From assembly GCA_903879985.1 (NCBI GenBank), contig CAIRNR010000007.1, forward strand, positions 151,665 to 215,664: 64,000 nt of DNA, in the 5' to 3' direction. Made by a program: the position numbers and the translations under genes. This stretch comes from an uncultured candidate division WWE3 bacterium. GTDB lineage: Bacteria; Patescibacteriota; WWE3; UBA101185; UBA10185. Of this stretch, positions 3,232 to 45,124 are shown one piece after another. The notes below the pieces were generated by a model. It ran no database searches. It saw only the letters and a program-made list of their open reading frames with translations, and had not been told where the DNA came from. Positions within the stretch are counted from its first letter, which is position 1, and every line of letters starts with the position of its first letter.

Positions 3232-3867
3232 TTAATAGGCTCCTTTACCTGTTAAAACAACTAATGGCGTCTTAAATATGATCATTAGATCATACAGCAA
3301 AGAACGCTTTTTTGCATACGAGGCATCCAATTTTACTCTAGCGTCAAAAGATAAGCTAGAGCGACCGCTTATTTGCCATAAACCTGTTAAACCTGGCTTT
3401 ACCGAGTAAACAACCTGCATTAAATCTTTTAGGTCTGGGTGGGTTTCAAGCTGTTTATCCACTTCAAATGGATAATAGGCACGGGGTCCAACAAAGCTCA
3501 TTTCACCACGCAAAATATTAAAGAACTGTGGAAGCTCATCAATACTGGATTTACGGATAAACTTTGCGCCTTTAATTAATCTTGGATCAGGGTCAAGTTT
3601 AAAATTATTCTCTTGGTATTTTTTAAGCAACTCAGGCTGACTCATAAGCCATTCGTGAGCATGCGGAATCATTGAACGAAATTTAAAGAATTTGAATGTT
3701 TTACCATCCTTACCTACGCGTAAGGGCGTATCAGCAAGTACTGGTCCGCTTGGAGAAACAAGTTTAATCCAAATGGAGGCACCAAGCATTAAAGGTGCAC
3801 TGAAAACAATGCCACATAGAGAAATCACAATATCCATTATTCGTTTAGAAATATCGTAGAAGCTCAT
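3232..3867 (-). CDS. Polyprenyl-phosphate sugar phosphotransferase (Bac_transf family, small PglC/WbaP C-terminal type). This is the initiating enzyme.
   Basis: Has an N-terminal TM helix. The signature DELPQFFNILRGEMSFVGPRA matches the bacterial sugar transferase motif. Confidence 0.85.
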   Translation of the reverse strand: MSFYDISKRIMDIVISLCGIVFSAPLMLGASIWIKLVSPSGPVLADTPLRVGKDGKTFKFFKFRSMIPHAHEWLMSQPELLKKYQENNFKLDPDPRLIKGAKFIRKSSIDELPQFFNILRGEMSFVGPRAYYPFEVDKQLETHPDLKDLMQVVYSVKPGLTGLWQISGRSSLSFDARVKLDASYAKKRSLLYDLMIIFKTPLVVLTGKGAY

Positions 3868-4997
3868 GTTAAGTCCTTTAAGTATACACTATTAACAAAT
3901 GTGACGAATTTTTCGGTAAAAACTTTACTACTAAATTTAGATGCATGGCGCTGGCATTTTAGTGAATTGTATTTTTCGGGCTCGAAGTTTTTGAGAACTT
4001 GCATAAGGCTACTGGAAGTTTGTTTATCAAAAAATTCACCTGTTTCTCCCGCGATAACAGTTTCTAGGGCACCACCACTGCGGTAAGCGATAACGGGCTT
4101 ACCCAAGGACATTGCCTCAACCGGAACTATTCCAAAATCTTCGCTTTGAGTATTTATGAGTGCTAAACAATTTTCTATTAATCTAGATTTTTCGTGTTCT
4201 GAAACATGCCCCAAAAAAGTTGTATTTTTTCCAGAAATATTTTTAAGTCGTTCAGTATCACTACCCTCACCAACTATAATTAATTTTAGTCCCAATTCTT
4301 CGCAAGCTTGAATCGCGATATCGACATGTTTCCAAGCAACAAGTCGGGTTATTACTAAATAATAAGGCGTACTGGTGGATTGTTCGGCTAAAGCAGCATC
4401 AGATTTTTTAATATCGGCGAAAGGATTTATTAAAACGCTTTCACGGCCATAATACTTGTTGATTCGATTTTTTGTGACAACACTATTGGAAATAAAATGA
4501 TCGACACGTTGCGCGGCACAGTAATCCATAATTCTAATTAAAGACAAAGGTAACTGTAAAAAGAACGCGGCTAAATTTTTTAGAATATAGCTACCGCCAA
4601 AACTTTCATTTTCAAAATAATCTGCGGATTCCCAAAACATACGGCCGGGCGAATGACAATAACAAATATGTAAAGTTGAAGGCTTTGTAACAATAAAATG
4701 TGAATATCTTGAAGACAAACTTATTACTACATCAAACTCAGAAAAATCGAAACTTTCAAAAGCTAATATGTGTAAAAGAAAAACTGAATACACGCGATTA
4801 AGTTTTACAGCAAAAGGGAATTTTTGTAGAAATGACGTATACACATCTACACCGGATTTTTTATATTTTTCCAACCAACGTTTACTGGCAACCGAGGTAT
4901 AAACAGGTGCATCGGGAAAAATCTCGGAAACTAATTTTACAACCTTTTCTGCTCCACCGAACTGAATGAGATCATCACAGACTATTGCCAATTTCAT
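3864..4997 (-). CDS. Glycosyltransferase family 4 (GT-B).
   Basis: N-terminus MKLAIVCDDLIQFGGAEKVV. The C-terminal E-x7-E-like region reads SEDFGIVPVEAMSLGKPVIA. Confidence 0.85.
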   Translation of the reverse strand: MKLAIVCDDLIQFGGAEKVVKLVSEIFPDAPVYTSVASKRWLEKYKKSGVDVYTSFLQKFPFAVKLNRVYSVFLLHILAFESFDFSEFDVVISLSSRYSHFIVTKPSTLHICYCHSPGRMFWESADYFENESFGGSYILKNLAAFFLQLPLSLIRIMDYCAAQRVDHFISNSVVTKNRINKYYGRESVLINPFADIKKSDAALAEQSTSTPYYLVITRLVAWKHVDIAIQACEELGLKLIIVGEGSDTERLKNISGKNTTFLGHVSEHEKSRLIENCLALINTQSEDFGIVPVEAMSLGKPVIAYRSGGALETVIAGETGEFFDKQTSSSLMQVLKNFEPEKYNSLKCQRHASKFSSKVFTEKFVTFVNSVYLKDLT

Positions 4998-5016
4998 AGA
5001 TGATTAAGATTATACT

Positions 5017-6210
5017 ATGCAATTACTACAACGTAGCATCGCGGTAGCTTATACACTAAATAGCCTCTATAATAGACCCATAATGTTAATAGCACTTAAC
5101 GGACAACGTATTTTAATGCAAAACCCAGCAGGACCAGAGAAATATACAATAAATATGTACTCTGCCCTATCCAAAGTTGATACAACCAACAAATACGTGG
5201 TTTATTTTGAAAACGAACCTAGTGCAGAATTCTGGAAAAGTCTATGCAGTAACAACCCAAACTGGGCATATAAAGTACTTCCGAAAAAATACTCCTGGAC
5301 ACAATACTCACTTGGCAAGGAATTATTCAAAAACACACCAGATGTGTTCTTTACCCCAATACACACATTACCTGTAATTAGGCCACTAAAGACAAAGTAT
5401 GTAGTAATGGTTCATGGTTTGGAATATGGCTTTACAAAAAATAATGCTAACTGGTTTCAAAAATTAGTTTTAGGAAAAACCGAATGGTATGTTTGTACAT
5501 TCGCAAACAAACTCATTGTTCCAACACAAGCGACAAAACAAAAGATACTAAAAAAAGGATGGACTGAAGATTCTAAAATTGAAATAGTAAATGAAGGAGT
5601 ATCACCAACTTTTTATAAACGCCCACCTGAAGAAATAAAAACTGTATTAACAAGGTACAACTTACAAAATAATCCTTATCTGATTTTTGTTTCAACAATT
5701 CAACCACGAAAAAACTTGCCAAGAACAATTGAGGCTTTCGCAAAAGCTGTAAAAAGTAATTCCCAGTTAGCATTTGAAAAACTAGTGATTGTTGGTAAAA
5801 AAGGTTGGGAGTTCGAAGAATCATTGGCAGCGCCAAAAAAGTTTGGCATTGAAAACAACGTTATATTTTTAGGTCGCGCTCCCGATGAAGACTTACCTGC
5901 CTTAATTTCAGGTGCACAAGGTTATGTTAATTTTTCACTTGAGGAAGGATTTGGTCTGCCATTATTAGAGTCTTTTGCGTGTGAAACCCCAACAGCAATT
6001 TCCGATATCCCCGCGTTTGTGGAAGTTGGAGAAGATACACCAATTTATGCAAATCCAGAAAATGTTGATCAAATCTCAGCAGCAATTGTACAACTACTGA
6101 ATTACGCACCAAATCCACAAAATGTTTTAAAGGGAAAACAACACTCGCAAAAGTTCACATGGGAAAACACAGCGAGAAAAACTTTGGATGTACTTTTGAA
6201 TCTTAAATAA
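5017..6210 (+). CDS. Glycosyltransferase family 4. The probable true start is the internal Met near 5083 (MLIALNG...).
   Basis: EGFGLPLLESFACETPTAISDIPAFVEVGED motif. It is divergent from the minus-strand GT4 gene. Confidence 0.85.
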   Translation: MQLLQRSIAVAYTLNSLYNRPIMLIALNGQRILMQNPAGPEKYTINMYSALSKVDTTNKYVVYFENEPSAEFWKSLCSNNPNWAYKVLPKKYSWTQYSLGKELFKNTPDVFFTPIHTLPVIRPLKTKYVVMVHGLEYGFTKNNANWFQKLVLGKTEWYVCTFANKLIVPTQATKQKILKKGWTEDSKIEIVNEGVSPTFYKRPPEEIKTVLTRYNLQNNPYLIFVSTIQPRKNLPRTIEAFAKAVKSNSQLAFEKLVIVGKKGWEFEESLAAPKKFGIENNVIFLGRAPDEDLPALISGAQGYVNFSLEEGFGLPLLESFACETPTAISDIPAFVEVGEDTPIYANPENVDQISAAIVQLLNYAPNPQNVLKGKQHSQKFTWENTARKTLDVLLNLK

Positions 6211-7339
6211 ATTTCTGAAAAACAGAAAACGTAATTTTTGCAGTATCCAGCCAACTAAATTTCTTAACTTGCTCATAACCTTTTTTTATAAGTGATTTTT
6301 GCAAATCAGTATCTGATAGAGCTAGATTTATTTTAGCAGCAATATCATCAACATTTAGCGGATCAAAATAAACCACTGAGTCGTCATAAATCTCACGATG
6401 TACCGGAATATCGGATATAACACAAGGTAAACCTTGAACTTGCGCTTCCAATGGCGTTAAGCTAAATCCCTCTTTTAATGAAGGAAAAACATAAAGCTGG
6501 GCTGCTCGACGCAATGCCACAACCATTTTATCTGAAATATACTCGTTCAATCCAGGTAATAATATTTTAGATTCAAGATGCTTACTGTTTACAAGAGTGG
6601 CAATTTTTTCAGAAAACTTATCTCTTTTTCCTACTAACAATAGTTTTCCTTGATAATTATATTTATTAATTAATATCTCAAATGCATCAACCAACCTAGG
6701 CAAATTTTTATGTTCATAAGCACTACTTACATAAAGTAAAAAAGGTTTTTCCACACCAATTTGTTTAAGTACTTCTTCTGAGGTCAAGTCTGTATCTAAA
6801 TAATTAGGATCAACACCTTCGTAAGCTAAAACATATTTATCAGTAGAAATCTGCGGATATACTTTTTTAAAATCGTTAAGAACATCTTGCGAAGGCACTA
6901 TTACTTTTTTGGATCTAAATACTGCCCACCATACGACCATTTTGTATACAAACTTTTTAAATCTAAAGTAGGGTTTTGGCAAAGTAGTTCCAGCCTCGGT
7001 ACTGAAACTATGCATAATAATATCGGGAATAGCAGTTACGATTTTTTTAGGATACAAAACAGGAATATTAAAGTGAGGCACGTAAAACAAATCCAGATTG
7101 TATTTTAACAGTAAAAATAGAAATGGAATTTGTTCACTCCATGTATACCATTTGTAATCAGCCAAGACTTTTTTAAAATTCGGATTTTGAGGTTTATACG
7201 CTTCAAAGCCACGTGGTCTTAAAAAAACAATATATTCATTTTCCAAATCCACTTGCTCTAAATGCTTAACGATGTTGTTAACATACCTTCCTGGTCCGGC
7301 TTCATCATAAAATCTGCAATCTAAACCTATGCGTTTCAT
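6203..7339 (-). CDS. Glycosyltransferase family 4.
   Basis: MKRIGLDCRFYDE N-terminus and an EGFSLTPLEAQVQGLPCVISDIP motif. Confidence 0.85.
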   Translation of the reverse strand: MKRIGLDCRFYDEAGPGRYVNNIVKHLEQVDLENEYIVFLRPRGFEAYKPQNPNFKKVLADYKWYTWSEQIPFLFLLLKYNLDLFYVPHFNIPVLYPKKIVTAIPDIIMHSFSTEAGTTLPKPYFRFKKFVYKMVVWWAVFRSKKVIVPSQDVLNDFKKVYPQISTDKYVLAYEGVDPNYLDTDLTSEEVLKQIGVEKPFLLYVSSAYEHKNLPRLVDAFEILINKYNYQGKLLLVGKRDKFSEKIATLVNSKHLESKILLPGLNEYISDKMVVALRRAAQLYVFPSLKEGFSLTPLEAQVQGLPCVISDIPVHREIYDDSVVYFDPLNVDDIAAKINLALSDTDLQKSLIKKGYEQVKKFSWLDTAKITFSVFQKFI

Positions 7340-10263
7340 TTTTGAAGTAACGCTGCTGCTTGCTTAGCCTCAGCCTCCTGTTGAGCTAAAACTTTTGCAT
7401 CATGATCTACTTTAGAATCGAAATACCACAGAACGTAATCTCCATCATATTGAACAACAACGGGCGGATAAGTCTTACCTATTACTTGTGAGGAGTATCG
7501 CCCGGACTTAGTTAACAGAATTAATGGAACATTAGGATCTACTTCGGGCACCCGATCTTTTTTAGTAGGTTCAAAGTCTATAACCTCGTAAGGACTGTCT
7601 GTATAAAACATTACAACCGGATCTTCGATACGATCAACGTAAACCTTATCCTTTGTTCCGAATTTTGAATCTTTAAGCTGCAATAATCGCGCCTCAGAAC
7701 CAGTTAAATCAGAACTGAACGCCAGGTTTCTGTTTAAAAATAGATAAAAGAATCCAAAAATAAATAGTACAAATATTGTTAAAAACTTAACTGAAACTGT
7801 ATTTAATCGACTGAATTTTTCGTAAACAAACTTCAAAACAGTATCTATAAAGTTTCCTGCTATTATTGCCAACGCCGGATATATTGGAATTATGTACCAA
7901 ATAAGTTTTGATTTTGCGATCGAAAAAAAGAAAAATATAAACAAAGCCCAAATAACAAGCAAAACATATCGTGAATCTTTTTTGATAATTTTAAAAATAC
8001 TAAAAATTAAACCTGGTATTAAAACCAAAAACCAAACGCGCATGCTTACCTTTATTACTGTTAAATACCAAAAGAATGGTTTCCCTTTGTCTTCAATAGA
8101 TTCGGTAGCGCGGTCCCATACATGGTAGCCAATATAATTTTTCAAAAACGACATTCCATACTTTTCGTACATGAAAATATGCCAAGGCATAAAAACTACT
8201 AACGCAGAAACAATAAGTGTTACATATCCCCAAACGAGTTTTTTCGTAAACTTTTGAGACTTTGTTAATAAGGCATATATTTCGTATAAGAAAATAATTG
8301 GAAATGGTATCAAACCAACTACACCCTTGATCATTACACCAAGACCGATTGACACCCCCGATAATATCCAGTAGGCCAGTTTTCCTTTGTCTTTTGCGAA
8401 AGAATAAAAGTATATGGATAACAAAATGAAAAACGTAGTGCTTACGTCGGTCATTGCACTGCGCGAATAATAGATAAATTGAACAGTTGTAAGCAATATA
8501 AGTGCCGAAATAAAACCGGTTGTCTTACTAAACCATTTGGATCCTAGCATGAATACAATCACCACCGATAAAAACCCTAGAATTGCACTTGGCAAACGAG
8601 CTGCCCATTCATTTACGCCAATAACTTTCATAGCACCAGCCATAAGCCACATATACAAAGGTGGTTTTTCGTACCAAACCTTATTTGGTTTCCAATACAT
8701 ATCTAGCCAGTTTCCTGAAACAACCATGTTTTTAGAAATCTTTGCGTATATTGCCTCATCCCAAGGAACCAAATGATTTGTACCTAAATTAACAAACAAA
8801 ATTAATGCACTCACAACCAAGACTATTAACAACAAACTTCTGGTAGAACCTAACAAGCTAGACAATATTTCTGAAAATGAAACTTGGTTTCTTACAATGC
8901 TGTGAGCCCAAATGAAATATAAAAATAAGATTATCCAAAAAAATTCTGTATTGTAGGAATAAAATATTCCTGCCACATATAACCCAATAATTGCGCTGAA
9001 CATACCCGCGGATAAAAGATAATTTTTCAGGTCGGTCGATTTAAGTGCCATATACAACAGCGTCATAAGTAGTACACAACTAAAAAGAAGATACGCAGAA
9101 AGTCCAAGAATTCCTGTCTCTGAAACAAGTTCACCCCAAATGGTATGTGCAGGAACCCTTGTGCTTAAAGCTGCAGGATCCCGCCCAAAAAATACTGGTG
9201 CAGTTTTAGTAGAACTAAATTGTTCAAAGAACGAGCCATAACCTCCACCAAGATATGGATATTTTTCAAACACTTCAACAGCGCCTTGAAGTAATAAAAA
9301 GTGTGAATCGTAGGAATCCATTCTATAGTGAAAATAATTGCGGATAGCAGCTCTAAATGGACTGCTTTTTATACTATAAAAATAGCCTATGGGTGCAGAA
9401 ATAATTATCAACCCAATGAGAACATACATTACGCCCTTAACACCGATCTTTTTGAAGAGAAGAACACTAAGTAATACTAGAAACTCTACTCCTGCTAAAA
9501 TCCATGAGGATCGAGAGTTCGTTAAAAATACAGCAGCGGCAATAGAAATAAACATTAATATATTTAGTAACTTGAGCTTGATATTTTTTTCGGTAAAGGC
9601 AAATATAGCAATAATAGGTAAAACTACAGCAAGCAGTGCGCCATACTGATTTACATCCCAAAATAGCGAACCTAATCGAGGCAGGTTTTCTGGAACATTC
9701 CATAAGGCACCAATTATTATGTTGTAGCGCATAAACAAAAACATTTGAATGTAACCAAAAAGTGTTAATGCAAAAACTGTGTATGTATAAAATTTAATAT
9801 ATTTAACAACTTGTAGTGTGTTTTCCCGTAACGAGAAATATAGATAAATTCCCAGAGCTACTATAGCAGTCAAGAATCCAAACAAAGATACGCTTGCAGA
9901 CATATTTTTACTGAAATATATTGAAACACCTGCAGCTATCCAATAAAACAACAAAGCAGCTACAAAAGGTTCTTTTATAGATGCAATGATTTCTGAAAAA
10001 AAGAATTTAACGTCTATACCTTTTCCTTTTGGACTTCGTGACCCACTAGAAACAAATCTGGTATATAACTTAACAATCCCAGCGCAAAGTACGGCAAAAA
10101 TATAACCACGTACCGGTAACAAATCCCAGCGATAGAAGCTGAACAACTCCTTGTGCATGAATACCGACAATATCAGCAAAATATAAACGGAAAATTTAAA
10201 GTCCCGCAAAATAAGGAAAAAACATATTAAAAATATTGCAATAACAACTGCGAGTTCTAACAT
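7336..10263 (-). CDS. 975-aa polytopic membrane protein: N-terminal Wzy_C-like (O-antigen ligase/polymerase) domain fused to a GT-C PMT_2/ArnT-like domain, with a soluble C-terminal domain.
   Basis: LTNSRSSWILAG is an O-antigen ligase-like motif. Mid-region YEKPPLYMWLMAGAMKVIGVNEWAARLPSAILG...YYSRSAMTDV resembles GT39/ArnT. There are many TM segments and a C-terminal hydrophilic tail. Confidence 0.7.
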   Translation of the reverse strand: MLELAVVIAIFLICFFLILRDFKFSVYILLILSVFMHKELFSFYRWDLLPVRGYIFAVLCAGIVKLYTRFVSSGSRSPKGKGIDVKFFFSEIIASIKEPFVAALLFYWIAAGVSIYFSKNMSASVSLFGFLTAIVALGIYLYFSLRENTLQVVKYIKFYTYTVFALTLFGYIQMFLFMRYNIIIGALWNVPENLPRLGSLFWDVNQYGALLAVVLPIIAIFAFTEKNIKLKLLNILMFISIAAAVFLTNSRSSWILAGVEFLVLLSVLLFKKIGVKGVMYVLIGLIIISAPIGYFYSIKSSPFRAAIRNYFHYRMDSYDSHFLLLQGAVEVFEKYPYLGGGYGSFFEQFSSTKTAPVFFGRDPAALSTRVPAHTIWGELVSETGILGLSAYLLFSCVLLMTLLYMALKSTDLKNYLLSAGMFSAIIGLYVAGIFYSYNTEFFWIILFLYFIWAHSIVRNQVSFSEILSSLLGSTRSLLLIVLVVSALILFVNLGTNHLVPWDEAIYAKISKNMVVSGNWLDMYWKPNKVWYEKPPLYMWLMAGAMKVIGVNEWAARLPSAILGFLSVVIVFMLGSKWFSKTTGFISALILLTTVQFIYYSRSAMTDVSTTFFILLSIYFYSFAKDKGKLAYWILSGVSIGLGVMIKGVVGLIPFPIIFLYEIYALLTKSQKFTKKLVWGYVTLIVSALVVFMPWHIFMYEKYGMSFLKNYIGYHVWDRATESIEDKGKPFFWYLTVIKVSMRVWFLVLIPGLIFSIFKIIKKDSRYVLLVIWALFIFFFFSIAKSKLIWYIIPIYPALAIIAGNFIDTVLKFVYEKFSRLNTVSVKFLTIFVLFIFGFFYLFLNRNLAFSSDLTGSEARLLQLKDSKFGTKDKVYVDRIEDPVVMFYTDSPYEVIDFEPTKKDRVPEVDPNVPLILLTKSGRYSSQVIGKTYPPVVVQYDGDYVLWYFDSKVDHDAKVLAQQEAEAKQAAALLQK

Positions 10264-10264
10264 A

Positions 10265-12537: not shown

Positions 12538-12548
12538 CTAACGTATAT

Positions 12549-13754: not shown

Positions 13755-13801
13755 AGTATAAGGCTAACCACTATTATACATGTTATGAAAAGGAAATACT
13801 C

Positions 13802-15169: not shown

Positions 15170-15178
15170 AGGTTAAAA

Positions 15179-18278: not shown

Positions 18279-18343
18279 ATAGTTTGATTATACAAGCTCT
18301 ACGTAGATACTACATAATACTGCAAATGCCGTAACCCTATAGT

Positions 18344-18372
18344 TTGACCATATTTGAAATATAATATATAGT
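18344..18372 (+). promoter_or_regulatory. Sigma70-like promoter for the orphan ORF: -35 TTGACC (18344-18349), 17-nt spacer, -10 TATAGT (18367-18372).
   Basis: Read directly from the sequence. An AAGGAG Shine-Dalgarno lies at 18397-18402, with the ATG at 18411. Confidence 0.35.
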
Positions 18373-18410
18373 ATCCAAAAATCGGAATCTTATAAGAAAG
18401 GAGCAAACGA

Positions 18411-18740: not shown

Positions 18741-18751
18741 TACACGCAATG

Positions 18752-18795
18752 ATACGGTATAAAGGATTAATTTCCCGAATACCGTATATTTTTTG
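18752..18795 (+). terminator. Intrinsic terminator-like hairpin (ATACGGTAT / ATACCGTAT, 9-bp stem) followed by ATTTTTTG.
   Basis: The inverted repeat lies 12 nt after the TAA stop of the orphan ORF and is followed by a T-run. Confidence 0.45.
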
Positions 18796-18830
18796 CTTAA
18801 ATTGGCTTTAATAGTATTATCAAAAGAAAT

Positions 18831-39413: not shown

Positions 39414-40643
39414 TTATATATCTTTCTCCTTGTGGAATACCACATCGGAAATTACCTGATCATACTGTTGAATCATATTTTCTAAAGAAAATTCGTTTAG
39501 AGCTTTTATTCTAGCATTCTCTGCCATTTTTTGCCTTAAAGATTGGTTATTTGCCAGTTCTAACAAGCGTAATTTGAAACTTTCGATATCATCTTGGCGA
39601 ACTACAAAACCTGTTTCGCCATTAATGACAGCATCGGGAACTCCACCTAGGCCAAAAGCAACTATAGGCAAGGAAGCCAACATAGCTTCGACTAAAACCA
39701 TTGGAAAACCTTCAATACGCTTGGTTGGGAAAACAAAAATATCAGGATGAGATAAAACGTAATAACTTACAACCTTTGAATAATCTAATTTACCTTTTAA
39801 AACAAGTTTTTTTGACAACCCTGCAGCTTTAACTTTTTCCTTAAACTCATCCAAATATGTTCCCCCACCAACAGCTATTAATTGAAAATTAGAAAATCTT
39901 TTGTCGCTTAAAATGTCAAATAAATAATCAAGACCTTTTTCCTTTGCAATCTGGCCAACGTATAAAAGTTTTATTTTGCTTTCCTCAAAAAAGTCTTCAT
40001 CACCTTTTTGCTGGTTCTCGGGAATAAGCTGTGTGTTTACACCGTTATGAATTACTTTAATCTTGCGCTCATCCACAAAAGTTTCTTCAATTAAAGATTG
40101 CTTAACAGCATTTGAAACAGCCACCACAAGATTTGAACCGTGAACAAAAGAACGCTGTACCGTAAAGAAATTGAGAATGACGTGCGGTAAATCTATGAAT
40201 ATTTTGATTACATCGGTAACGGAATTAATGCTGTTAACTCTGGTTTGAAATTCACCTGACTTAGTTCCGTGAGATATAGAAATAACAGGAATACCAATAT
40301 CTTTTTTTCTATTTATCACAGAAAGTCCGGAAGAACTTTGACTAATAAACAAATTAAATTTTGATTTAGAATTTTCCTGCGCAAAACTTTGCAACAGCAT
40401 GTTATACCAACTATTCTTTTGCCATTGAGTTATTATTGAAAATTTTGGTTTAATACAGTTAACAAATATGTATCTAACACCGTTTTCTGTAATTTCCGTG
40501 TCTTTTACTTCATTTTTTGGTGAAAAAACAACAACTGTATGACCCTTTTTGACCAGGCCCTCACACAATACCCTATTCTGTGTTTCTAATCCGCCAAACC
40601 CTTTGTGAAAAGTAGTAGCTTTAACGCTAACCGCTATGTTCAT
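39414..40643 (-). CDS. Glycosyltransferase family 4.
   Basis: EGFPMVLVEAMLASLPIVAFGLGGVPDAV motif. Confidence 0.85.
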   Translation of the reverse strand: MNIAVSVKATTFHKGFGGLETQNRVLCEGLVKKGHTVVVFSPKNEVKDTEITENGVRYIFVNCIKPKFSIITQWQKNSWYNMLLQSFAQENSKSKFNLFISQSSSGLSVINRKKDIGIPVISISHGTKSGEFQTRVNSINSVTDVIKIFIDLPHVILNFFTVQRSFVHGSNLVVAVSNAVKQSLIEETFVDERKIKVIHNGVNTQLIPENQQKGDEDFFEESKIKLLYVGQIAKEKGLDYLFDILSDKRFSNFQLIAVGGGTYLDEFKEKVKAAGLSKKLVLKGKLDYSKVVSYYVLSHPDIFVFPTKRIEGFPMVLVEAMLASLPIVAFGLGGVPDAVINGETGFVVRQDDIESFKLRLLELANNQSLRQKMAENARIKALNEFSLENMIQQYDQVISDVVFHKEKDI

Positions 40644-40645: not shown

Positions 40646-41875
40646 TTATATTGTACTACAAAGCAATTCTTCTAATTTTTTAACATTTTTGTTGAGATCA
40701 AATAATTCTTTGGCTTTTAAACTAGCGTTTGTGGTCAATTTTGTAGCTAAGTCTTTATTCTGAAGTACCGTTTTAAGGGCCTCAGCCAGCTTTTGAGAGT
40801 CTTTTTGAGGCACCAACAAACCTGTTTCGTTATTTACAATTAAATCAGTGGTACTGCCCGAATCTGTTGAAACCATAGGAACTTTATAAAAAGCACCCTC
40901 AACTAAAACATTCGGAATACCATCGGCATCGCCACTTTCGGCTGTAATGCCCGGAAATGCGACAACGTCTGCCATTAAGTAGCACTTTTCTATTTCGCTG
41001 TATACCACACCCTGGCCATCTCCTAAAATCTTAACTGTGCTCTCAAGATGTTTGTCAGCAATAAGTTTCATTATTTCGGCATAAGCCTCGGGAGTACCAC
41101 CACCTGCGATGTACAAATAATGGTCCACACCGGAGTCTATTAATATTTTAGAAGCTTCTATCAAATACTTTTGTCCTTTTTTCTCTACCAACCGTCCGAC
41201 ATTAAAAATTAATGGTTTGTCCAGCTTTTTTACTTCAGCTAAAGCTTCCCCAGACTGCAACTCTTTTCCAAAATCAATTCCGTGAAACTGCAAAAACACC
41301 TTTGACTGTAAAGACTTATCTAACTTATTCAAAACAAAGTTGTAGGCATTTCTGTTACAAATAACAATAAACTTTGCCGTTTTTGCCTTTTCCTGCAAAT
41401 ATTCACCTTCTACTAAAATATCTATAGCGTGTCCGGAAATTGCGTAGGGTATGCGTAAAATTGCAGAAACCAACATTATCAAGGTTGAAGGATACGACAA
41501 AAAATGTACAAAAATAATATCCGGGTTAAAATCTTTTATTTTACGAGCAAAACCTACAGCTTTTATAAGAGTATAAATTTTGCCAAATGAAAAAGGTGTT
41601 GATTTTAATAAAGAATAAGCTCGTAGAATTCGGGGTAAGTAATCAAACCACATTGGAAACGAAAGTAACAAGTCCAAAACATTTAACTTGTAATAACTAA
41701 CCTTATCCACCAAATTCGGCGATACCATACCTTGACCCTTTTCTAAAGAAAGAATCTTGATATCTAGTACCGCCGATTCGGTCATTTTCGATATTTCACG
41801 ATCGATAAAAGTTTCCGAAAGTACAGGAAACTTTGGTACAAAGACTAATACTTTTTTCTTAATGTCCATTTCCAT
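40646..41875 (-). CDS. Glycosyltransferase family 4.
   Basis: DGIPNVLVEGAFYKVPMVSTDSGSTTDLI motif. Confidence 0.85.
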   Translation of the reverse strand: MEMDIKKKVLVFVPKFPVLSETFIDREISKMTESAVLDIKILSLEKGQGMVSPNLVDKVSYYKLNVLDLLLSFPMWFDYLPRILRAYSLLKSTPFSFGKIYTLIKAVGFARKIKDFNPDIIFVHFLSYPSTLIMLVSAILRIPYAISGHAIDILVEGEYLQEKAKTAKFIVICNRNAYNFVLNKLDKSLQSKVFLQFHGIDFGKELQSGEALAEVKKLDKPLIFNVGRLVEKKGQKYLIEASKILIDSGVDHYLYIAGGGTPEAYAEIMKLIADKHLESTVKILGDGQGVVYSEIEKCYLMADVVAFPGITAESGDADGIPNVLVEGAFYKVPMVSTDSGSTTDLIVNNETGLLVPQKDSQKLAEALKTVLQNKDLATKLTTNASLKAKELFDLNKNVKKLEELLCSTI

Positions 41876-43235
41876 TAGTTAAGAATGCCGATCTTTGATC
41901 AGATTTTCTGGAGTCAATTTTTTCTACTCCATTTGTTCTTTTTCCAATAGCAAAATAAGTATAACCGGATTTTTGAACAGCTTCTTTATCTAACATGTTT
42001 CTACCATCAAAAATTATTGGCTCCTTTAATAAACTCTTTACTTTTTCAAGATCAATTCCTGAAAATTCTTTCCATTCGGTTAATATGAACAAAGCATCAG
42101 CGCCTTCCATTGTTTCGTAAGAACTTTTGCAATATTCAACAGATACATCACCCAATACTTTTTTAGCGTTATCCATAGCTTCTGGATCGTAAACTTTAAG
42201 TTTAGCGCCCATACCGCGAAGCAACTTAACGATTTCAATAGAAACGGATTCTCTAATATCGTCGGTGTCACCTTTAAAGGCTAAACCTAAAACTGCGAGT
42301 GTTTTGCCACTCAAGTTTTTACCTAACAATCGTGTGACTTTAAATACAAAATGATCTTTTTGAGCTTTGTTAACTTCCATAACTCCTCGGAGCAAACTAA
42401 AGTCATAGTCCTGGTCAGTTGATGTTTTATACAAAGCGGCTACGTCCTTTGGGAAGCAACTTCCACCGTAACCAATTCCTGCGTTCAAAAAAGCTGGGCC
42501 AACTCGGCGATCTAAACCCATACCTTTTGCAACTGTACAAACGTCGGCACCGGCACGTTCGCATAACTGAGCCATCTCGTTGATAAAGGTAATTTTTGTA
42601 GCTAAAAATCCATTTGAAGCGTACTTAATCATTTCTGCAGAACGTAAATCACAAGCAACGATTGGTTTTCCAAGATGCGTGTACAAACGAGTCATAACTT
42701 CTAATGCTTTTGCTGTTTCTGTACCTACAACTGTTCTATCAGGAACTTTCATATCATCAACAGATGAACCTTCTCTTAAAAATTCCGGATTTGAAGCAAC
42801 ATCAAACTCCATACCTTCTTTAGCGTTGGCTCTGATAATAGTTTTAACTTTTTCATTTGTTCCAACAGGAACTGTACTTTTTGTAACAATAACTTTGTAA
42901 CCTGTTAAGTTTTTTCCTATTTCTTCTGCTACTTCCCAAACCGCGGATAAATCGGCGGCGCCGGTTTCACTTTGAGGGGTTCCAACGCAAACAAAAACTA
43001 TTTCGGCGTCTTTAATACCGTCGGCAACTGAGGTCGTAAAAGTTAAACGATTTTCCTTAATATTATTCAAAACAATTTCAGAAAGACCTGGCTCGTAAAT
43101 TGGCATATCTCCAGCTTTAATTCTTTCTATTTTTGAGGCATCTTTATCTACACCAATTACTTCATTGCCCCAGTCAGAAAATATAGCGGCTCCTACTAAA
43201 CCAACGTATCCGGTTCCAATTACACATAACTTCAT
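41859..43235 (-). CDS. ugd: UDP-glucose 6-dehydrogenase (nucleotide-sugar dehydrogenase).
   Basis: MKLCVIGTGYVGLVGAAIFSDWGNEVIGVDKD NAD-binding N-terminus and a GGSCFPKD active-site motif. Confidence 0.85.
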   Translation of the reverse strand: MKLCVIGTGYVGLVGAAIFSDWGNEVIGVDKDASKIERIKAGDMPIYEPGLSEIVLNNIKENRLTFTTSVADGIKDAEIVFVCVGTPQSETGAADLSAVWEVAEEIGKNLTGYKVIVTKSTVPVGTNEKVKTIIRANAKEGMEFDVASNPEFLREGSSVDDMKVPDRTVVGTETAKALEVMTRLYTHLGKPIVACDLRSAEMIKYASNGFLATKITFINEMAQLCERAGADVCTVAKGMGLDRRVGPAFLNAGIGYGGSCFPKDVAALYKTSTDQDYDFSLLRGVMEVNKAQKDHFVFKVTRLLGKNLSGKTLAVLGLAFKGDTDDIRESVSIEIVKLLRGMGAKLKVYDPEAMDNAKKVLGDVSVEYCKSSYETMEGADALFILTEWKEFSGIDLEKVKSLLKEPIIFDGRNMLDKEAVQKSGYTYFAIGKRTNGVEKIDSRKSDQRSAFLTNGNGH

Positions 43236-43984
43236 AAGTTATATTTTCCTTTCATATAATTAAACTTAATTAAAATTAAATCCTTAACCATTTTGATAGA
43301 ATCTGAGATTGCACTTAACCTGGTAGTTTTAACATATGTCCAAACAACAGGAACATCTTTAACTTTGTAACCCATTTTTTTGGCTAAATATAAAACCTCT
43401 ACATCAAATGCTCCAAAGTAAGCGCGATCAAGTACTTTTGCCTCTTCTCCATATATTCTTAATCTAGAAAATATCTTTCTTGCTACATCTCCTTTAAAAA
43501 GCTTAAATCCACACTGAGTATCATTGATACCCGGTAACAATAGTATTTGAACTACTAAATTGAAAACGCGACCCATCAAATGTCGGTAAAAAGGCTCACC
43601 AACTCTTTTGGCGCCGTAACCTTCACGTGATGCGATTACAATATCGTAGTCCTGATCAATTACCCAAATAGAAAGTTTTTTTAATTCCTGAATTGGTGCA
43701 GAAAGATCTGCGTCACAAATATATACATACTTACCTTTTGACTGAGTAACACCAGTCCAAAGTGTAGGTCCCTTTCCTTTGTGTAGATTTTTTATTAATA
43801 CTATTTCGGGGTTAAGTCTGGCATATTCTTCAATAATTACAGCGCTGGTATCTTTACTACCATCATCAACAGTTATTATTTCGAAACTGGTAGAAAAGCC
43901 ACGCATGAAATTTAGAATTTGTGTAAGAGAAGCTGTTATTTTGTCTGACTCATTAAATACAGGTATAACGATTGAATATTCCAT
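43232..43984 (-). CDS. GT2 polyprenyl-phosphate sugar synthase (ArnC/GtrB/CsbB-like).
   Basis: YSIVIPVFNESDKI...TVDDGSKDTS...CDADL. Confidence 0.85.
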   Translation of the reverse strand: MEYSIVIPVFNESDKITASLTQILNFMRGFSTSFEIITVDDGSKDTSAVIIEEYARLNPEIVLIKNLHKGKGPTLWTGVTQSKGKYVYICDADLSAPIQELKKLSIWVIDQDYDIVIASREGYGAKRVGEPFYRHLMGRVFNLVVQILLLPGINDTQCGFKLFKGDVARKIFSRLRIYGEEAKVLDRAYFGAFDVEVLYLAKKMGYKVKDVPVVWTYVKTTRLSAISDSIKMVKDLILIKFNYMKGKYNL

Positions 43985-45124
43985 TTATTTAGATTTCCTC
44001 CAGATTATTTTACTATACATAGTAAAGTTCCAGATTAAGCCAAAAAGTACGCCAATTACAAAAGCTACGTTTGAAACGATAAATGTATTTCCAAAGGAAG
44101 CGGTTGCAATACCTACTAACTTTGAACGAATAAGTATCGGAACAAACGATACAACAACATAGAGTATCCAGCTTATCACCTTTTTGGTCATTCCTTCAAG
44201 TTTTCTTTCTTTAAAAGACCAATAGTTGTTTAACAAAAATGTTGTAATCATTGCGATTGTGCCTGACGTAAGTGCTGCGTAGTTAGAACTTAACAAGGTA
44301 ACACGTAATATGTTAAATAGTCCGGTATCAACAAATAGCCCTGTAAAACCTACAATACAAAATTTTAAAAAGTTTGGACTCATTAATGCAGTAACTTTTT
44401 TTCCAAAACGTAAAGTTAGAACAACTCGAAGTGAATCCATAAAATTATTGTTTTCCATTTTAGAGTTTCCGCGATCACGTAATCCAAATATAATTGGAAC
44501 TTCTTTAATTTTTGCACCTAGTTTATGCATTCTAAACAAAAGATCAATTTTGTAAGCAAAACCACCTGACAAAATATTATCGAGATCCAATTTATCTACA
44601 AAACCTTGAACGCGAGATGCTTTAAAACCCGAAGTAAAATCGTTAACGCTAAAAATACCTAAAACCATCTTTGAAAAAATATTTCCGCCAACACTTAAAA
44701 ATTTTCTATAGAGCGACCAGTCCTGTGGAATTCCACCGCCCTTTGTGAAGCGCGAGCCAATAACATAGTCATAACCTTGGGAAAATGGTTCTACGAGGCG
44801 TATAACATCTTTAGGATCATGTTGAAAGTCGGCATCCATCTCAACTAACACATCCGGTGATAAATTTCTCATGGCGTATTTAAAACCAAACGCATAAGCA
44901 GCACCAAGGCCAGCTTTTTTTTCTTCCATTAATAAATGTACAAAAGGATAGAGTGATTGTTTTTGTTTCACAACTTCAGCGGTACCATCAGGAGAATTTC
45001 CCTCAACAACCAAAACATGAAACTCGTTTGCTGGGTTTTGTTTAAACTCTTGTGCTAATGCTTCTATCATGAGGCCGATGTTCTCTGCCTCATTATATGT
45101 AGGTATAACAATAACAATCTTCAT
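43985..45124 (-). CDS. GT2 polyprenyl-phosphate glycosyltransferase fused to a C-terminal GtrA-like four-TM domain.
   Basis: MKIVIVIPTYNEAENI...EMDADFQHDP in the catalytic half. The C-terminal half has four TM helices like the GtrA family. Confidence 0.8.
   Translation of the reverse strand: MKIVIVIPTYNEAENIGLMIEALAQEFKQNPANEFHVLVVEGNSPDGTAEVVKQKQSLYPFVHLLMEEKKAGLGAAYAFGFKYAMRNLSPDVLVEMDADFQHDPKDVIRLVEPFSQGYDYVIGSRFTKGGGIPQDWSLYRKFLSVGGNIFSKMVLGIFSVNDFTSGFKASRVQGFVDKLDLDNILSGGFAYKIDLLFRMHKLGAKIKEVPIIFGLRDRGNSKMENNNFMDSLRVVLTLRFGKKVTALMSPNFLKFCIVGFTGLFVDTGLFNILRVTLLSSNYAALTSGTIAMITTFLLNNYWSFKERKLEGMTKKVISWILYVVVSFVPILIRSKLVGIATASFGNTFIVSNVAFVIGVLFGLIWNFTMYSKIIWRKSK

Follow-up and report, generated by a model that had tools for sequence, protein, structure and literature searches.

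The pairing of a phosphoglycosyl transferase with a DUF4012 protein, seen in the locus described here, is also present in an EPS cluster of Bifidobacterium (PMC5412050), and the CPR is enriched in the DUF4012 family (PMC6744442). An archaeal PMT_2-like protein, Agl23, has been reported to be a flippase and not a transferase (PMC11182771), and WWE3 has been noted earlier for its many glycosyltransferases (PMC3812714). The 64,000-nucleotide stretch of DNA analysed here (the window) is from a candidate-phylum bacterium with a tiny genome (WWE3, Patescibacteria), and about 38 back-to-back genes in it extend over 45 kb. Leaving the acceptor aside, this run encodes the machinery that assembles a complex sugar polymer of the cell surface. 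We consider it fairly probable that positions 1267-46358 form a single envelope-glycan locus, inherited vertically and characteristic of WWE3, that unites two lipid-carrier routes.

Gene content and extent of the locus

The ORF listing and Pfam/NCBIfam scans of each ORF reproduced, almost gene for gene, the inventory that a first-pass annotation had drawn up for positions 3232-45124: 12 GT4 and 6 GT2 enzymes, 7 polytopic GT-C-like proteins, 2 Wzx proteins, 1 UPF0104 protein, a small priming phosphoglycosyl transferase, Ugd, 2 methyltransferases and a B12 radical SAM (rSAM) enzyme. With every ORF scanned, zero housekeeping genes interrupt this run, as had been claimed, and Pfam and NCBIfam gave no family assignment for the ORFs at 18411-18740 (+) and 21611-22060. 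Genes are on the minus strand unless marked (+). Neighbouring genes abut or overlap (intergenic gaps of -68 to +132 bp; coding density about 100%), and the GC content of the cluster is uniform with that of its flanks, so the cluster is no compositional island.

The interval 3232-45124 is slightly too narrow: in relatives, three genes outside it keep synteny with the cluster, and the functional unit probably extends from the DUF4012 gene (1267) to the CAP gene (46358). The DUF4012 protein (1267-3225; 652 aa; Pfam DUF4012, 84 bits) has a single N-terminal TM segment and a large external domain, and its gene adjoins the priming transferase gene in 21 of the 27 WWE3 loci with full flanks. At the other edge, an 85-aa ORF with three TM segments (45128-45385; from the ORF listing) keeps its position at 38-73% identity in L073, L075, L076 and L077, and the gene for a CAP/SCP-domain membrane protein (45387-46358; Pfam CAP, 69 bits) adjoins the DPMS-type GT2 gene in the same four relatives; in L077 the outer neighbours differ, yet the pairing is kept.

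Block A and its fusion protein

Block A (1267-15169) includes a polyprenyl-phosphate phosphoglycosyl transferase of 211 aa (3232-3867; Pfam Bac_transf, 184 bits), which also matches the EPS_sugtrans/WbaP C-terminal catalytic domain of NCBIfam, is 56-69% identical in relatives and, judged by its sequence, would start a PP-linked glycan. Four GT4 enzymes are conserved members of the block: 'a' (3864-4997; Glycos_transf_1, 88 bits) and 'e' (11392-12537; Glycos_transf_1, 113 bits), both in 27 of 27 full-flank loci, 'd' (10265-11395; Glycos_transf_1, 76 bits) in 25 of 27 with a median identity of 58%, and the TuaH-like 'f' (12549-13754; Glyco_trans_1_4, 38 bits; NCBIfam TuaH, 80 bits, under the cut-off) in 26 of 27. 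The gene for GT4 'b' (5017-6210, +; Glycos_transf_1, 84 bits) is oriented opposite to its neighbours, an inversion that is kept in relatives, and occurs in about half of the loci. Orthologues of GT4 'c' (6203-7339; Glycos_transf_1, 89 bits) are likewise found in about half of the loci (50-64% identity), and more distant GT4 enzymes substitute for it elsewhere.

A Wzx/Wzy-type route had been proposed for this cluster, and a Wzy-like element is present, but it is not a separate gene: it forms the N-terminal half of a 975-aa fusion with an ArnT-like GT-C protein (7336-10263). Residues ~1-470 are WaaL/Wzy-like, whereas residues ~475-975 resemble ArnT/PMT_2 GT-C enzymes and end in an external domain. 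Matches to Pfam Wzy_C (41.9 bits; cut-off 31.7), PMT_2 (102.5 bits) and PMT (74.9 bits) and to NCBIfam ArnT (125 bits) agree with the AF2 model (pLDDT 84, pTM 0.83), for which Foldseek returned ArnT (5f15, E 8e-13) and WaaL (7tpg, E 5.7e-4). Invariant residues are R251, R314, H373-T-x9-G384-x-x-G387 and D502-E503; the Arg and His residues are of the ligase type, and the D502-E503 pair belongs to the GT-C half, where it lies in the first loop. Full-length counterparts of the fusion occur in 71 species genomes and in over 120 protein clusters, and a two-in-one membrane enzyme of this kind has not been described.

GT2 enzymes, flippases and the radical SAM block

Two outcomes had been named that would overturn the first-pass reading, GT2 enzymes that are processive synthases and polytopic proteins unrelated to GT-C; both were tested for, and the reading stands. 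The GT2 enzymes are not processive synthases: QxxRW occurs in none of the six. Four of them are DPM1-like; they form one paralogue group, all carry a DAD motif, and each has the P. furiosus Dol-P-Man synthase (DPMS, 5mlz) as its best solved relative. One of the four is an archaeal-type polyprenyl-P-hexose synthase (43985-45124; Glycos_transf_2, 92 bits; GtrA_DPMS_TM, 54 bits), which aligns over its full length to 5mlz (residues 1-350 against 23-366, E 2e-39). Its four-helix membrane domain had been read as a fused GtrA-like domain; the domain is there, but that alignment identifies it as native to archaeal-type DPMS and not as an added flippase. The other three are putative polyprenyl-P-sugar synthases: a DPM1/ArnC-like protein of 250 aa (43232-43984; Glycos_transf_2, 87 bits) with DPMS 5mlz (E 4.6e-14), then GtrB and ArnC, as its top PDB matches; a DPM1-like protein of 230 aa (35937-36629; Glycos_transf_2, 122 bits; 5mlz, E 2e-17; NCBIfam AglJ, 109 bits over the full length) that is 61-83% identical in relatives; and a DPM1-like protein (24704-25543; Glycos_transf_2, 72 bits; 5mlz, E 1.2e-10 over residues 8-211) that shares about 30% identity with each of the remaining DPM1-like enzymes.

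Next to this last gene is an MftF/EpsD-like GT2 (23695-24717; Glycos_transf_2, 57 bits; NCBIfam MftF, 108 bits, under the cut-off) with two C-terminal TM helices; in relatives its counterpart is invariably the gene immediately upstream of rSAM. The rSAM gene encodes a B12-binding, HpnJ-like enzyme (22062-23693; Radical_SAM, 60 bits; B12-binding, 31 bits) that matches NCBIfam HpnJ over nearly its full length (159 bits, below the 578 cut-off) and is 63-78% identical across 199 metagenome loci. A Wzx/MOP flippase of 423 aa (25515-26786; Polysacc_synt_3, 53 bits; Polysacc_synt, 52.5 bits) stays adjacent to the GT2-GT2-rSAM genes in relatives, and conservation across the locus is highest in the resulting Wzx-GT2-GT2-B12-rSAM block. 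A small protein encoded beside it (21611-22060; 149 aa, two to four TM segments) is weakly YdjM-like (Pfam YdjM, 17 bits, below the cut-off) and is a putative membrane hydrolase; its homologues come after the rSAM gene or before ORF9 in many relatives. The second Wzx/MOP flippase (32303-33787; 494 aa; Polysacc_synt_3, 79 bits) has orthologues at 48-79% identity that come after the DUF2079 gene in relatives, and the UPF0104/LPG_synthase_TM flippase-like protein (31428-32306; Pfam, 141 bits) passes the TIGR00374 'flippase-like domain' model of NCBIfam (70.6 bits; cut-off 43.2).

Three further GT4 enzymes belong to the conserved block B: 'j' (38214-39413; Glycos_transf_1, 85 bits; 51-80% identity in relatives), 'k' (39414-40643; Glycos_transf_1, 120 bits) and the EpsE/TuaC-like 'l' (40646-41875; Glycos_transf_1, 95 bits; NCBIfam EpsE, 132 bits, under the cut-off). 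They are followed by UDP-glucose 6-dehydrogenase (Ugd; 41859-43235; three UDPG_MGDP_dh domains with 214, 123 and 121 bits), present in L073 and L075 and absent in L076 and L077. Ugd is the sole nucleotide-sugar gene within the window, as had been noted; the locus of relatives carries rmlABCD and epimerases.

GT-C-like membrane proteins

The polytopic proteins did not emerge as transporters: five of the seven either score above the Pfam PMT_2 cut-off or match GT-C folds in a structure search. Of the other two, ORF 36632-38281 has a weak match and the DUF2079 protein is unproven. The window copy of ORF9 (13802-15169; 455 aa) has no Pfam match, and PMT_2 is found in about a quarter of its homologues; its AF2 model (pLDDT 84.5) identifies it as a GT-C-fold glycosyltransferase, with the top 29 Foldseek PDB matches all GT-C (ALG12, PglB, STT3, ArnT, AftB). 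The ORF9 gene is in 26 of 27 loci. In its product D36, located in the first loop, is invariant, and the C-terminus carries a CxxC motif.

Acidic motifs after TM1 are kept in each of the GT-C-like families. Three paralogues pass the PMT_2 gathering score: 26783-28417 (PMT_2, 30.0 bits; cut-off 26.1) with D-x-FNTD, 28414-29958 (PMT_2, 44.4 bits; PMT, 43.1 bits) with HPDEP, and 29915-31462 (PMT_2, 33.6 bits) with D-x-INPD, the first and last being 29% identical. The product of 36632-38281 (PMT_2, 23.1 bits, below the 26.1 cut-off) has conserved AEWGD and DEKRPP motifs and is probably a divergent GT-C; PMT_2 also matches its L075 and L077 orthologues weakly. The DUF2079 protein (33798-35933; 711 aa; Pfam DUF2079, 126 bits) has invariant D39/D44, a large C-terminal external domain and 50-76% identity within WWE3; neither an hhalign comparison with the ORF9 family nor a PDB profile search linked it to GT-C, and its place among these enzymes is presumed.

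Conservation and proposed assembly pathway

Throughout candidate division WWE3 the same gene order is found from CAP to recO (46-59 kb), and the locus is lineage-wide and conserved there, not a one-off. Block A is 45-64% identical in WWE3 species genomes, and in three genomes the contigs that carry it also have block B (23695-45124) in the same order, at a distance of 14-18 kb. Our reading of the pathway builds on these observations of synteny and conservation and on the family and fold identities and motifs above; substrates, the order of steps, the pairing of flippases with carriers and the acceptor are what we infer.

In the first route, encoded by block A, the small phosphoglycosyl transferase would prime polyprenyl phosphate, six GT4 enzymes would lengthen the polyprenyl-PP-linked oligosaccharide at the cytoplasmic face, a Wzx flippase would turn it outward, and the WaaL/Wzy-like half of the fusion would move the block en bloc onto either an acceptor or a further repeat unit; the DUF4012 protein is proposed as an auxiliary or chain-handling component. 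In the second, encoded by block B, the four DPM1-like GT2 enzymes, one of them the archaeal-type DPMS, would load single sugars on polyprenyl monophosphate, with Ugd supplying UDP-GlcA for one sugar, and the UPF0104 protein and/or a Wzx would turn the donors outward. Up to seven GT-C-type enzymes (the ArnT-like fusion half, ORF9, the three PMT_2 paralogues, ORF 36632-38281 and the DUF2079 protein) could then use the four polyprenyl-P-sugars at the outer face to extend, branch or decorate the glycan. The Wzx-GT2-GT2-B12-rSAM sub-block probably serves to produce a single lipid-linked sugar with a chemical modification. Our best guess for the product is a major surface heteroglycan on a membrane glycolipid or the wall, beyond protein modification alone; an S-layer or pilus protein as acceptor, as suggested in the first-pass annotation, is conjecture. 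Wzz/PCP proteins, LCP ligases and ABC exporters are absent from the window, which leaves chain-length control and anchoring without explanation.

Co-location does not prove that the genes make one product. In L074 some of block B is found at a different locus, which indicates that the two blocks can function apart and counts against a single locus; in L095, L097, L099 and L105-L107 the full array is contiguous, running from the GT-C trio to the rSAM gene and on to ORF9 and the fusion, which counts for it. Relatives keep a Wzx gene adjoining the fusion gene, and sometimes rmlABCD, which counts for the proposed two-route scheme; that Wzx gene is missing in this window, which counts against it. 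Some of the 'GT-C' proteins may move lipid-linked sugars rather than transfer them, because the PMT_2-like Agl23 is reported to do so.

Strain-variable insert

Only positions 15179-21611 are strain-variable, and under the two-route reading the GT4 enzymes and methyltransferases encoded there would diversify the product. GT4 'g' (15179-16375; Glycos_transf_1, 120 bits) has weak or absent counterparts in relatives, and is followed by an FkbM-type methyltransferase (16372-17124; Methyltransf_21, 70.5 bits) and GT4 'h' (17121-18278; Glycos_transf_1, 66 bits). The 109-aa ORF without a Pfam/NCBIfam match (18411-18740, +) is seen elsewhere only in an identical contig (L001), and GT4 'i' (18831-20012, +; Glycos_transf_1, 99 bits) has counterparts at 25-54% identity in some relatives. 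A generic non-DPM1 GT2 (19999-20958; Glycos_transf_2, 54 bits) groups solely with the 23695-24717 GT2 in the paralogue comparison. The insert ends with a class-I SAM methyltransferase (20934-21611; Methyltransf_23, 77 bits), and in relatives this position is occupied by methyltransferase genes more often than by any other accessory gene.

Gene content and boundaries of the cluster

Pfam models were searched against every ORF of the cluster (3232-45124), and NCBIfam models against its GT2, polytopic and flippase-like ORFs and ten of its GT4 genes. These scans bore out the gene counts of the first-pass annotation, namely 12 GT4 and 6 GT2 enzymes, 7 polytopic proteins of GT-C-like type, two Wzx/MOP flippases and a single UPF0104 (LPG_synthase_TM) protein. 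Its Ugd, initiating phosphotransferase (here a 211-aa Bac_transf protein), two methyltransferases (here an FkbM and a class-I enzyme) and B12-binding radical SAM enzyme were likewise recovered; another two ORFs of the interval, both small, belong to no family. The initiating phosphotransferase scored 184 bits and two ORFs exceeded the Pfam cut-off for Polysacc_synt/Polysacc_synt_3, giving the cluster the primer and the flippase of a Wzx/Wzy-type system. No match to Wzz or LytR_cpsA_psr was found among 50 scanned ORFs, which comprised all those of the cluster and part of the ribosomal flank, and the place beside the primer enzyme is taken by a DUF4012 gene. For sugar or acceptor specificity, the ten GT4 proteins yielded only generic, sub-threshold NCBIfam matches, the best for some of them being TuaH or TuaC. 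No S-layer, pilin or Ser/Thr-rich acceptor gene was found in or beside the cluster. The DUF4012 protein and the CAP/SCP-domain protein at the cluster edge were each considered as Ser/Thr-rich glycosylation targets and set aside, the composition of both being unremarkable.

The ORF map shows a nearly uninterrupted series of minus-strand genes, with recO (475-1221) at one end and the ribosomal protein/secY/adk operon at the other, and with intergenic distances of -68 to +132 bp in the cluster. The right flank (46385-63960) carries rpoC', S7, EF-G, EF-Tu, the S10/spc ribosomal genes, secY and adk on the same strand as the cluster and runs straight into it, the CAP gene lying just 26 bp from adk. 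The GC content of the cluster (0.34-0.37) is the same as that of its flanks, which together with the lineage-wide synteny of the locus rules out a horizontally acquired island.

A WaaL-like and ArnT-like fusion protein

The 975-aa product of 7336-10263 (minus strand) joins a WaaL/Wzy-like N-terminal half to an ArnT-like GT-C half. In Pfam, Wzy_C was matched at residues 237-392 of the N-terminal half (41.9 bits, cut-off 31.7) and PMT and PMT_2 in the C-terminal half, where ArnT was also the best NCBIfam match of the protein (125 bits). Foldseek matched an AlphaFold model based on 23 sequences (pLDDT 84, pTM 0.83) to ArnT (5f15; E 8e-13, target TM-score 0.65) and to WaaL (7tpg_B; E 5.7e-4, target TM-score 0.60), and the GT-C half of the model matched STT3, PglB, ALG12, Pmt and AftA as well. 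Invariant across the 23 sequences, which are 44-68% identical, are R251, R314 and H373-T-x9-G384-x-x-G387 in the N-terminal half and D502-E503 ('PWDEAIYAK') in the first loop of the GT-C half. The histidine motif corresponds to the H[NSQ]x9Gxx[GTY]-type motif in the large external loop of ligases, except that the fusion has T where that motif has N, S or Q. On its score, His/Arg motif and predicted fold the N-terminal half is assigned to the WaaL/Wzy_C superfamily, within which ligase, O-oligosaccharyltransferase and polymerase activities of this domain are not separable by sequence or fold.

Full-length fusions make up more than 120 protein clusters and were found in 71 species-representative genomes, labelled WWE3, Patescibacteria or Saccharibacteria, the last of these labels probably being wrong. 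ENA MAGs titled 'uncultured Candidatus Saccharibacteria' (L004, L010-L014 and about 30 other fetched loci) carry the WWE3-type fusion and block A, the left-hand conserved gene block (1267-15169), at the same identities as WWE3-labelled MAGs, probably through taxonomic mislabelling. In an exhaustive HMMER search with the N-terminal half, no more than 107 of 1.84 billion representatives reached E ≤ 1e-10, and the majority were 900-1050 aa long. A second tier of proteins from this search (P0399-P0447; 700-850 aa) has a WaaL/Wzy-like N-terminal domain 29-33% identical to that of the fusion and a shorter C-terminal extension, and may carry a different fusion partner. A literature search found no publication in the library covered that names Wzy_C and PMT_2 together, and nothing on DUF2079 or on CPR bacteria in combination with GT-C enzymes.

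Predicted polyprenyl-phosphate sugar synthases

All-against-all BLAST split the six GT2 enzymes into two groups. Four of them (24704-25543, 35937-36629, 43232-43984 and 43985-45124) are about 30% identical to one another, and two (19999-20958 and 23695-24717) fall outside this group. The four had been described as DPM1/ArnC/GtrB-type enzymes, and a PDB search agreed, returning the Pyrococcus furiosus dolichol-phosphate-mannose synthase 5mlz as the top solved relative of each, followed by ArnC and GtrB; DAD motifs lie at residues 91-120. They do not resemble processive synthases: a QxxRW-like motif is absent from all six GT2 proteins, and the four have either no TM segments or the four-helix DPMS domain only, a size and topology unfit for that role. 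None of the four (109, 61, 48 and 74 bits) reached the curated equivalog cut-offs of 325-529 bits for NCBIfam AglJ, ArnC and PpgS, and by sequence they are classed as family-level relatives of polyprenyl-phosphate monosaccharide synthases.

The fused GtrA-like domain noted earlier is present as Pfam GtrA_DPMS_TM, which occurs only at the C-terminus of 43985-45124. It is better described as native DPMS-type synthase architecture, since the alignment of this protein with 5mlz is full-length and takes in the four-helix membrane domain (E 2e-39). Pfam matched no separate small GtrA-family flippase in the cluster, and the UPF0104 and Wzx proteins are candidate substitutes.

Polytopic GT-C-like proteins

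Five of the seven polytopic proteins are supported by PMT_2 scores or Foldseek matches as GT-C-like proteins rather than transporters, as first proposed; a DUF2079 protein (33798-35933) and ORF 36632-38281 are candidates. The tandem paralogues 26783-28417, 28414-29958 and 29915-31462 passed PMT_2 with 30.0, 44.4 and 33.6 bits (Pfam cut-off 26.1). ORF9 (13802-15169, minus strand, 455 aa), at the end of block A, has no Pfam match in its window copy, about a quarter of its homologues having one; all of the top 29 PDB matches of its AF2 model (pLDDT 84.5) in Foldseek are GT-C enzymes, with query TM-scores of 0.54-0.55 against ArnT. An invariant C-x-x-C (residues 451-454) and a WHAAYD motif are found in the C-terminal region of the ORF9 family. 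ORF 36632-38281 scored 23.1 bits against PMT_2, under the same Pfam cut-off, and its AEWGD and DEKRPP motifs after TM1 are kept in five orthologues. Single-sequence searches of the PDB gave no match for this ORF or for the DUF2079 protein; a profile search of the PDB with the latter returned nothing relevant, and hhalign gave a probability of 0.2% for its relationship to the ORF9 family. The DUF2079 protein has invariant D39 and D44 after TM1, compatible with GT-C, and its GT-C status is presumed from these residues and from the placing of the family in the Pfam GT-C clan. The co-occurrence of all seven candidates with four DPM1-like GT2 enzymes points to a putative use of polyprenyl-phosphate-sugar donors on the outer face of the membrane.

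Conservation of the locus across WWE3

Searches by tblastn of all window proteins against the 71 fusion loci recovered block A in the order recO, DUF4012, primer, GT4a, (GT4b, GT4c), fusion, GT4d, GT4e, GT4f and ORF9, the GT4 genes being lettered as they occur in the window, at 45-64% identity. In 27 loci the flanks reach at least 9 kb on either side; of these, recO was present in 16, GT4b and GT4c in about half, and each of the other genes of block A in 21-27. In most relatives the fusion gene is immediately followed by a Wzx gene in opposite orientation, and in some of them by rmlABCD or epimerase genes after it. This Wzx, of ~400 aa, was seen in L002 (12807-14057) and 47 other loci; it is missing from beside the fusion in the window, L015 and L071, where the fusion gene abuts the next GT4 (7336-7339 junction in the window).

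DUF2079 is conserved at 50-76% identity across WWE3, and around it the right half of the window is repeated gene for gene in four relatives. The order shared by block B (23695-45124 in the window) and its outer neighbours is CAP, an 85-aa ORF, DPMS-type GT2, GT2, (Ugd), three GT4, GT-C, GT2, DUF2079, Wzx, UPF0104, three GT-C, Wzx, GT2 and GT2, Ugd being absent from the locus in L076 and L077. Three genomes have block B on the same contig as block A, 14-18 kb apart, and there the array from CAP to recO spans ~55-59 kb; in the window it measures 46 kb. The GT-C trio, a Wzx-GT2-GT2-radical SAM group, ORF9, GT4 genes and the fusion form a contiguous run in several contigs. The sole part of the window without consistent counterparts is 15179-21611, where relatives have other GT4, GT2 and methyltransferase genes. 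A conserved core with everything to the right of ORF9 variable is ruled out by the conserved, syntenic block B and radical SAM block. In L074 (WWE3 UBA1379), a GT2, DUF2079, Wzx, UPF0104, two GT-C, Wzx and GT2 of block B (8323-20539) lie among genes for RNase Y, HU and a pseudouridine synthase, unaccompanied by the CAP, GT4 and DPMS-type genes.

A B12-binding radical SAM sub-block

CPR bacteria are not generally known to make cobalamin (B12). The B12-binding radical SAM gene (22062-23693, minus strand) is the most conserved of the locus, with relatives at 63-78% identity in 199 metagenome loci (metagenome scan; L078-L157 among the fetched loci). The sub-block Wzx-GT2-GT2-radical SAM is constant, the radical SAM gene always being found with a Wzx, a DPM1-like GT2 and a 2-TM GT2. 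The protein scored 159 bits against TIGR03471 (HpnJ), under the NCBIfam equivalog cut-off of 578, and its neighbours are GT2 and Wzx genes rather than hpn genes; by sequence it is classed as a relative of HpnJ outside the HpnJ family. Because HpnJ works on a lipid-linked amino sugar (PMC9204698), it is a reasonable guess by analogy that this enzyme modifies a lipid-linked sugar.

Predicted assembly pathway and acceptor

The family identities, folds, motifs and synteny of the locus, read in the light of how these families work, suggest that a surface heteroglycan is assembled by two routes. In the first, polyprenyl phosphate would be primed by the small phosphoglycosyl transferase, the glycan lengthened inside the cell by GT4 enzymes and flipped by a Wzx, and transfer or polymerisation outside the cell carried out by the WaaL/Wzy-like domain. 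In the second, the four DPM1-like GT2 enzymes would make polyprenyl-phosphate sugars, with UDP-GlcA from Ugd; these would be flipped by UPF0104 and/or a Wzx and added outside by the GT-C enzymes, among them two from block A, ORF9 and the ArnT-like half of the fusion. The two GT-C modules of block A come without a lipid-phosphate-sugar synthase of their own, which argues that blocks A and B work together.

The same genes might instead represent several independent neighbouring pathways, for example a tua- or EPS-like Wzx/Wzy polysaccharide encoded by block A and a separate decoration system encoded by block B. The separate location of part of block B among housekeeping genes in L074 is in keeping with this, as are the many loci that have Wzx-GT2-GT2-radical SAM with no GT-C trio or block A within 10 kb, and the variable centre of the cluster. 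We nevertheless find independence unlikely, since most of the long contigs examined preserve the order CAP, block B, radical SAM block, block A, recO, since the blocks are immediately adjacent in several of them (including L021), and since block A would depend on block B for its donors. A different revision concerns the polytopic proteins, some of which may be Agl23-type flippases of lipid-linked sugars, leaving fewer true GT-C transferases. Purified Agl23 of H. hispanica, an archaeal PMT_2-like protein, moves a lipid-linked oligosaccharide across the membrane in liposomes (PMC11182771), so not every PMT_2-like protein here may need to be a transferase, and the NCBIfam model TIGR03663 ('flippase activity-associated protein Agl23') was matched by the C-terminal half of the fusion (64 bits) and weakly by 29915-31462. 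All of these scores lie below the cut-off of 126 bits, however, every GT-C-like family retains the acidic residues in the first loop that a catalytic GT-C enzyme should have, and three dedicated flippase-type genes are already in the cluster, all of which makes this proposal quite improbable in our judgement.

For the acceptor of the proposed two-route heteroglycan, our slight preference, by analogy, is for a polymer that is anchored to a glycolipid or part of the wall rather than for protein glycosylation, because the halves of the fusion resemble the glycolipid-acting WaaL and ArnT, because no acceptor protein gene lies nearby, and because neither LCP nor Wzz appears among the 50 scanned ORFs. 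The Wzy_C family includes O-oligosaccharyltransferases as well as ligases, and the fusion passes its cut-off with a catalytic-type His kept, in addition to matching the PMT and PMT_2 profiles. Protein O-glycosylation would have the WaaL-like domain act as a PglL/WsaB-type oligosaccharyltransferase, transferring the diphosphate-linked glycan to Ser/Thr/Tyr residues in a type IV pilin or an S-layer protein, with PMT_2-like GT-C enzymes adding or extending O-linked sugars in the manner of actinobacterial Pmt or the pilin enzyme TfpW; type IV pili are plentiful in CPR bacteria (PMC6744442), and polysaccharides, glycoproteins or a glycosylated S-layer have been proposed for WWE3 (PMC3812714). This seems rather unlikely, given that the GT-C half of the fusion is far nearer to ArnT, whose acceptor is a lipid, than to Pmt (125 bits for ArnT; Foldseek E of 8e-13 versus about 1e-3 for Pmt1/2), that Pfam listed no PglL_A or Wzy_C_2 match for the fusion at E ≤ 0.01, that no S-layer, pilin or Ser/Thr-rich gene accompanies the cluster, and that seven GT-C enzymes are far above the number in any known protein O-glycosylation system. 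We would sooner entertain, still only tentatively, a lipoglycan of the lipomannan/LAM or LPS-like kind, in which a glycolipid anchor would be made at the inner face by the GT4 trio of block B with Ugd and lengthened outside by GT-C enzymes from polyprenyl-phosphate sugars, and the WaaL-like domain would ligate the block A glycan to it, as O-antigen is ligated to lipid A-core. WaaL and ArnT, the best characterised relatives of the two halves, act on the same membrane glycolipid, and so many GT-C enzymes fed by a Ppm1-type GT2 are otherwise known only from the mycobacterial and corynebacterial LM/LAM/AG pathways; the absence of an LCP wall ligase from the window and the weak matches of several GT4 proteins to the glycolipid synthases IagA/BgsA and MGlcDAG synthase, all below cut-off, fit as well. 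These GT4 matches are generic, however, with none at a curated cut-off, Ugd is missing in L076 and L077, and an LCP gene could sit elsewhere in the genome. The most far-reaching proposal starts from the incomplete peptidoglycan pathway reported for WWE3, in which glycosyltransferases are abundant (PMC3812714), and is one to which we give little weight: the 46-59-kb locus would make the main structural polymer of the envelope, a heteroglycan that either is anchored to a glycolipid or forms the wall; the fusion would be a new coupling enzyme, combining en-bloc transfer of a polyprenyl-diphosphate-linked glycan and single-sugar transfer from polyprenyl phosphate on the same acceptor; and the HpnJ-like radical SAM enzyme would remodel a lipid-linked sugar, contracting its ring or adding a C-methyl group, ahead of its installation by a GT-C. 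If true, this remodelling would give sugar chemistry new to bacterial walls.

Comparison with known systems

The three-component systems GtrA/B/C of Shigella phages, CsbB/YfhO, GacI/J/L and L. lactis Csd with its CflA flippase share with the cluster a DPM1-like GT2 that makes a polyprenyl-phosphate monosaccharide, a flippase, and an outer polytopic GT-C transferase. The cluster differs in having four such GT2 and five to seven GT-C enzymes, in having no stand-alone GtrA-type flippase, and in embedding this multiplied logic in a diphosphate-linked block pathway. Wzx/Wzy-dependent Gram-positive loci such as the teichuronic acid operon tuaABCDEFGH of B. subtilis and the EPS cluster of Bifidobacterium have in common with it a Bac_transf primer, GT4 and GT2 enzymes, Wzx, a Wzy_C protein and Ugd (TuaD), and the adjacency of the primer (PGT) and DUF4012 genes is also found in B. 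longum (PMC5412050). Unlike those loci, the window has no Wzz/PCP or LCP ligase, its Wzy_C domain is fused to an ArnT-like GT-C, and six further GT-C-like proteins of the cluster have no counterpart there.

Assembly of arabinogalactan (AG) and LM/LAM in mycobacteria and corynebacteria involves WecA, GT-A/B enzymes, Ppm1/PpgS and, of the GT-C type, Emb, Aft, Mpt and PimE, and is the only well-studied bacterial system known in which many GT-C enzymes build an outside polymer from polyprenyl-phosphate sugars on a primer made inside. AftA, AftB, AftD and Emb are among the Foldseek matches here, and PpgS among the NCBIfam matches of the short GT2, but identity is only 10-15%, different sugars are implied, the candidate ligase is WaaL-like rather than LCP, and the host is a CPR bacterium with a genome of ~0.9 Mb. 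From lipid A modification and O-antigen ligation the cluster shares Ugd and an ArnC-like GT2, in addition to the fusion, of which ArnT is the closest solved structure of the C-terminal half and WaaL matches the N-terminal half. Just Ugd and the ArnC-like and ArnT-like proteins of the Arn pathway are represented, ArnA, ArnB, ArnD and ArnE/F being absent in the Pfam scan of cluster ORFs, and lipid A genes are absent from WWE3 genomes (PMC3812714). In contrast to Gram-negatives, ArnT- and WaaL-like activities would reside in one polypeptide here.

The slg clusters of Geobacillus and Paenibacillus, with a WsaP primer, a WsaB/WsfB Wzy_C-type O-oligosaccharyltransferase and a methyl cap, share the monoderm context, Bac_transf primer, Wzy_C-family transferase and methyltransferases; they are without GT-C enzymes and polyprenyl-phosphate-sugar synthases, whereas the window cluster is without a nearby S-layer gene. 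Resemblance to the haloarchaeal Agl22/Agl23 and AglJ/AglD dolichol-phosphate-hexose steps lies in AglJ being the top NCBIfam match of two DPM1-like GT2, in the match of the Agl23 model to the GT-C half of the fusion, and in the PfDPMS-type synthase architecture, but all matches are below curated cut-offs, the host is bacterial, and an AglB/STT3 oligosaccharyltransferase is absent.

The kinds of component are therefore all known, from tua/EPS-like Wzx/Wzy_C block assembly, three-component GT-C glycosylation and mycobacterial-style build-out by multiple GT-C enzymes. New are their combination and scale in a ~0.9-Mb lineage, the lineage-wide synteny, the WaaL-like::ArnT-like fusion, which joins the two main bacterial ways of moving sugars across a membrane, and the conserved B12-binding radical SAM sub-block. 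Patescibacteria (CPR) account for a large uncultivated share of bacterial diversity, with genomes of ~1 Mb and envelopes that are essentially uncharacterised. The allocation of 5-6% of a ~0.9-Mb genome to one syntenic glycan locus singles out its product as central to the biology of the lineage, for example in keeping the envelope intact or in attaching the cell to a host or partner, and a many-GT-C style of assembly known mainly from mycobacteria would extend to a very distant monoderm-like lineage. The fusion, the four candidate lipid-phosphate-sugar synthases and the B12-binding radical SAM enzyme, in organisms presumed unable to make B12, offer handles for study.

Additional genes in and beside the cluster

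A 109-aa ORF on the plus strand (18411-18740) belongs to no family, has a counterpart only in the identical contig L001 among the fetched loci, and may not be a real gene. The 149-aa membrane ORF at 21611-22060 (minus strand) is weakly YdjM-like (17 bits) and may be a membrane hydrolase; its homologues lie after the radical SAM gene or just before ORF9 in many relatives. The GT4 gene 5017-6210 is opposite in direction to all of its neighbours, with its start codon 19 bp from the start of the divergent neighbour and its 3' end overlapping the convergent neighbour by 8 bp, and this inversion is kept in relatives. The 85-aa ORF with three TM segments (45128-45385, minus strand) is separated by 1-3 bp from its two neighbours, the CAP gene and the DPMS-type GT2, and recurs at the same position with 38-73% identity in L073, L075, L076 and L077. 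The CAP/SCP-domain membrane protein itself (45387-46358, minus strand) stays at the cluster edge even in L077 (975-1952), where the outer neighbours are EamA/AdoMet_dc rather than secY-adk, suggesting that it may belong functionally to the locus.
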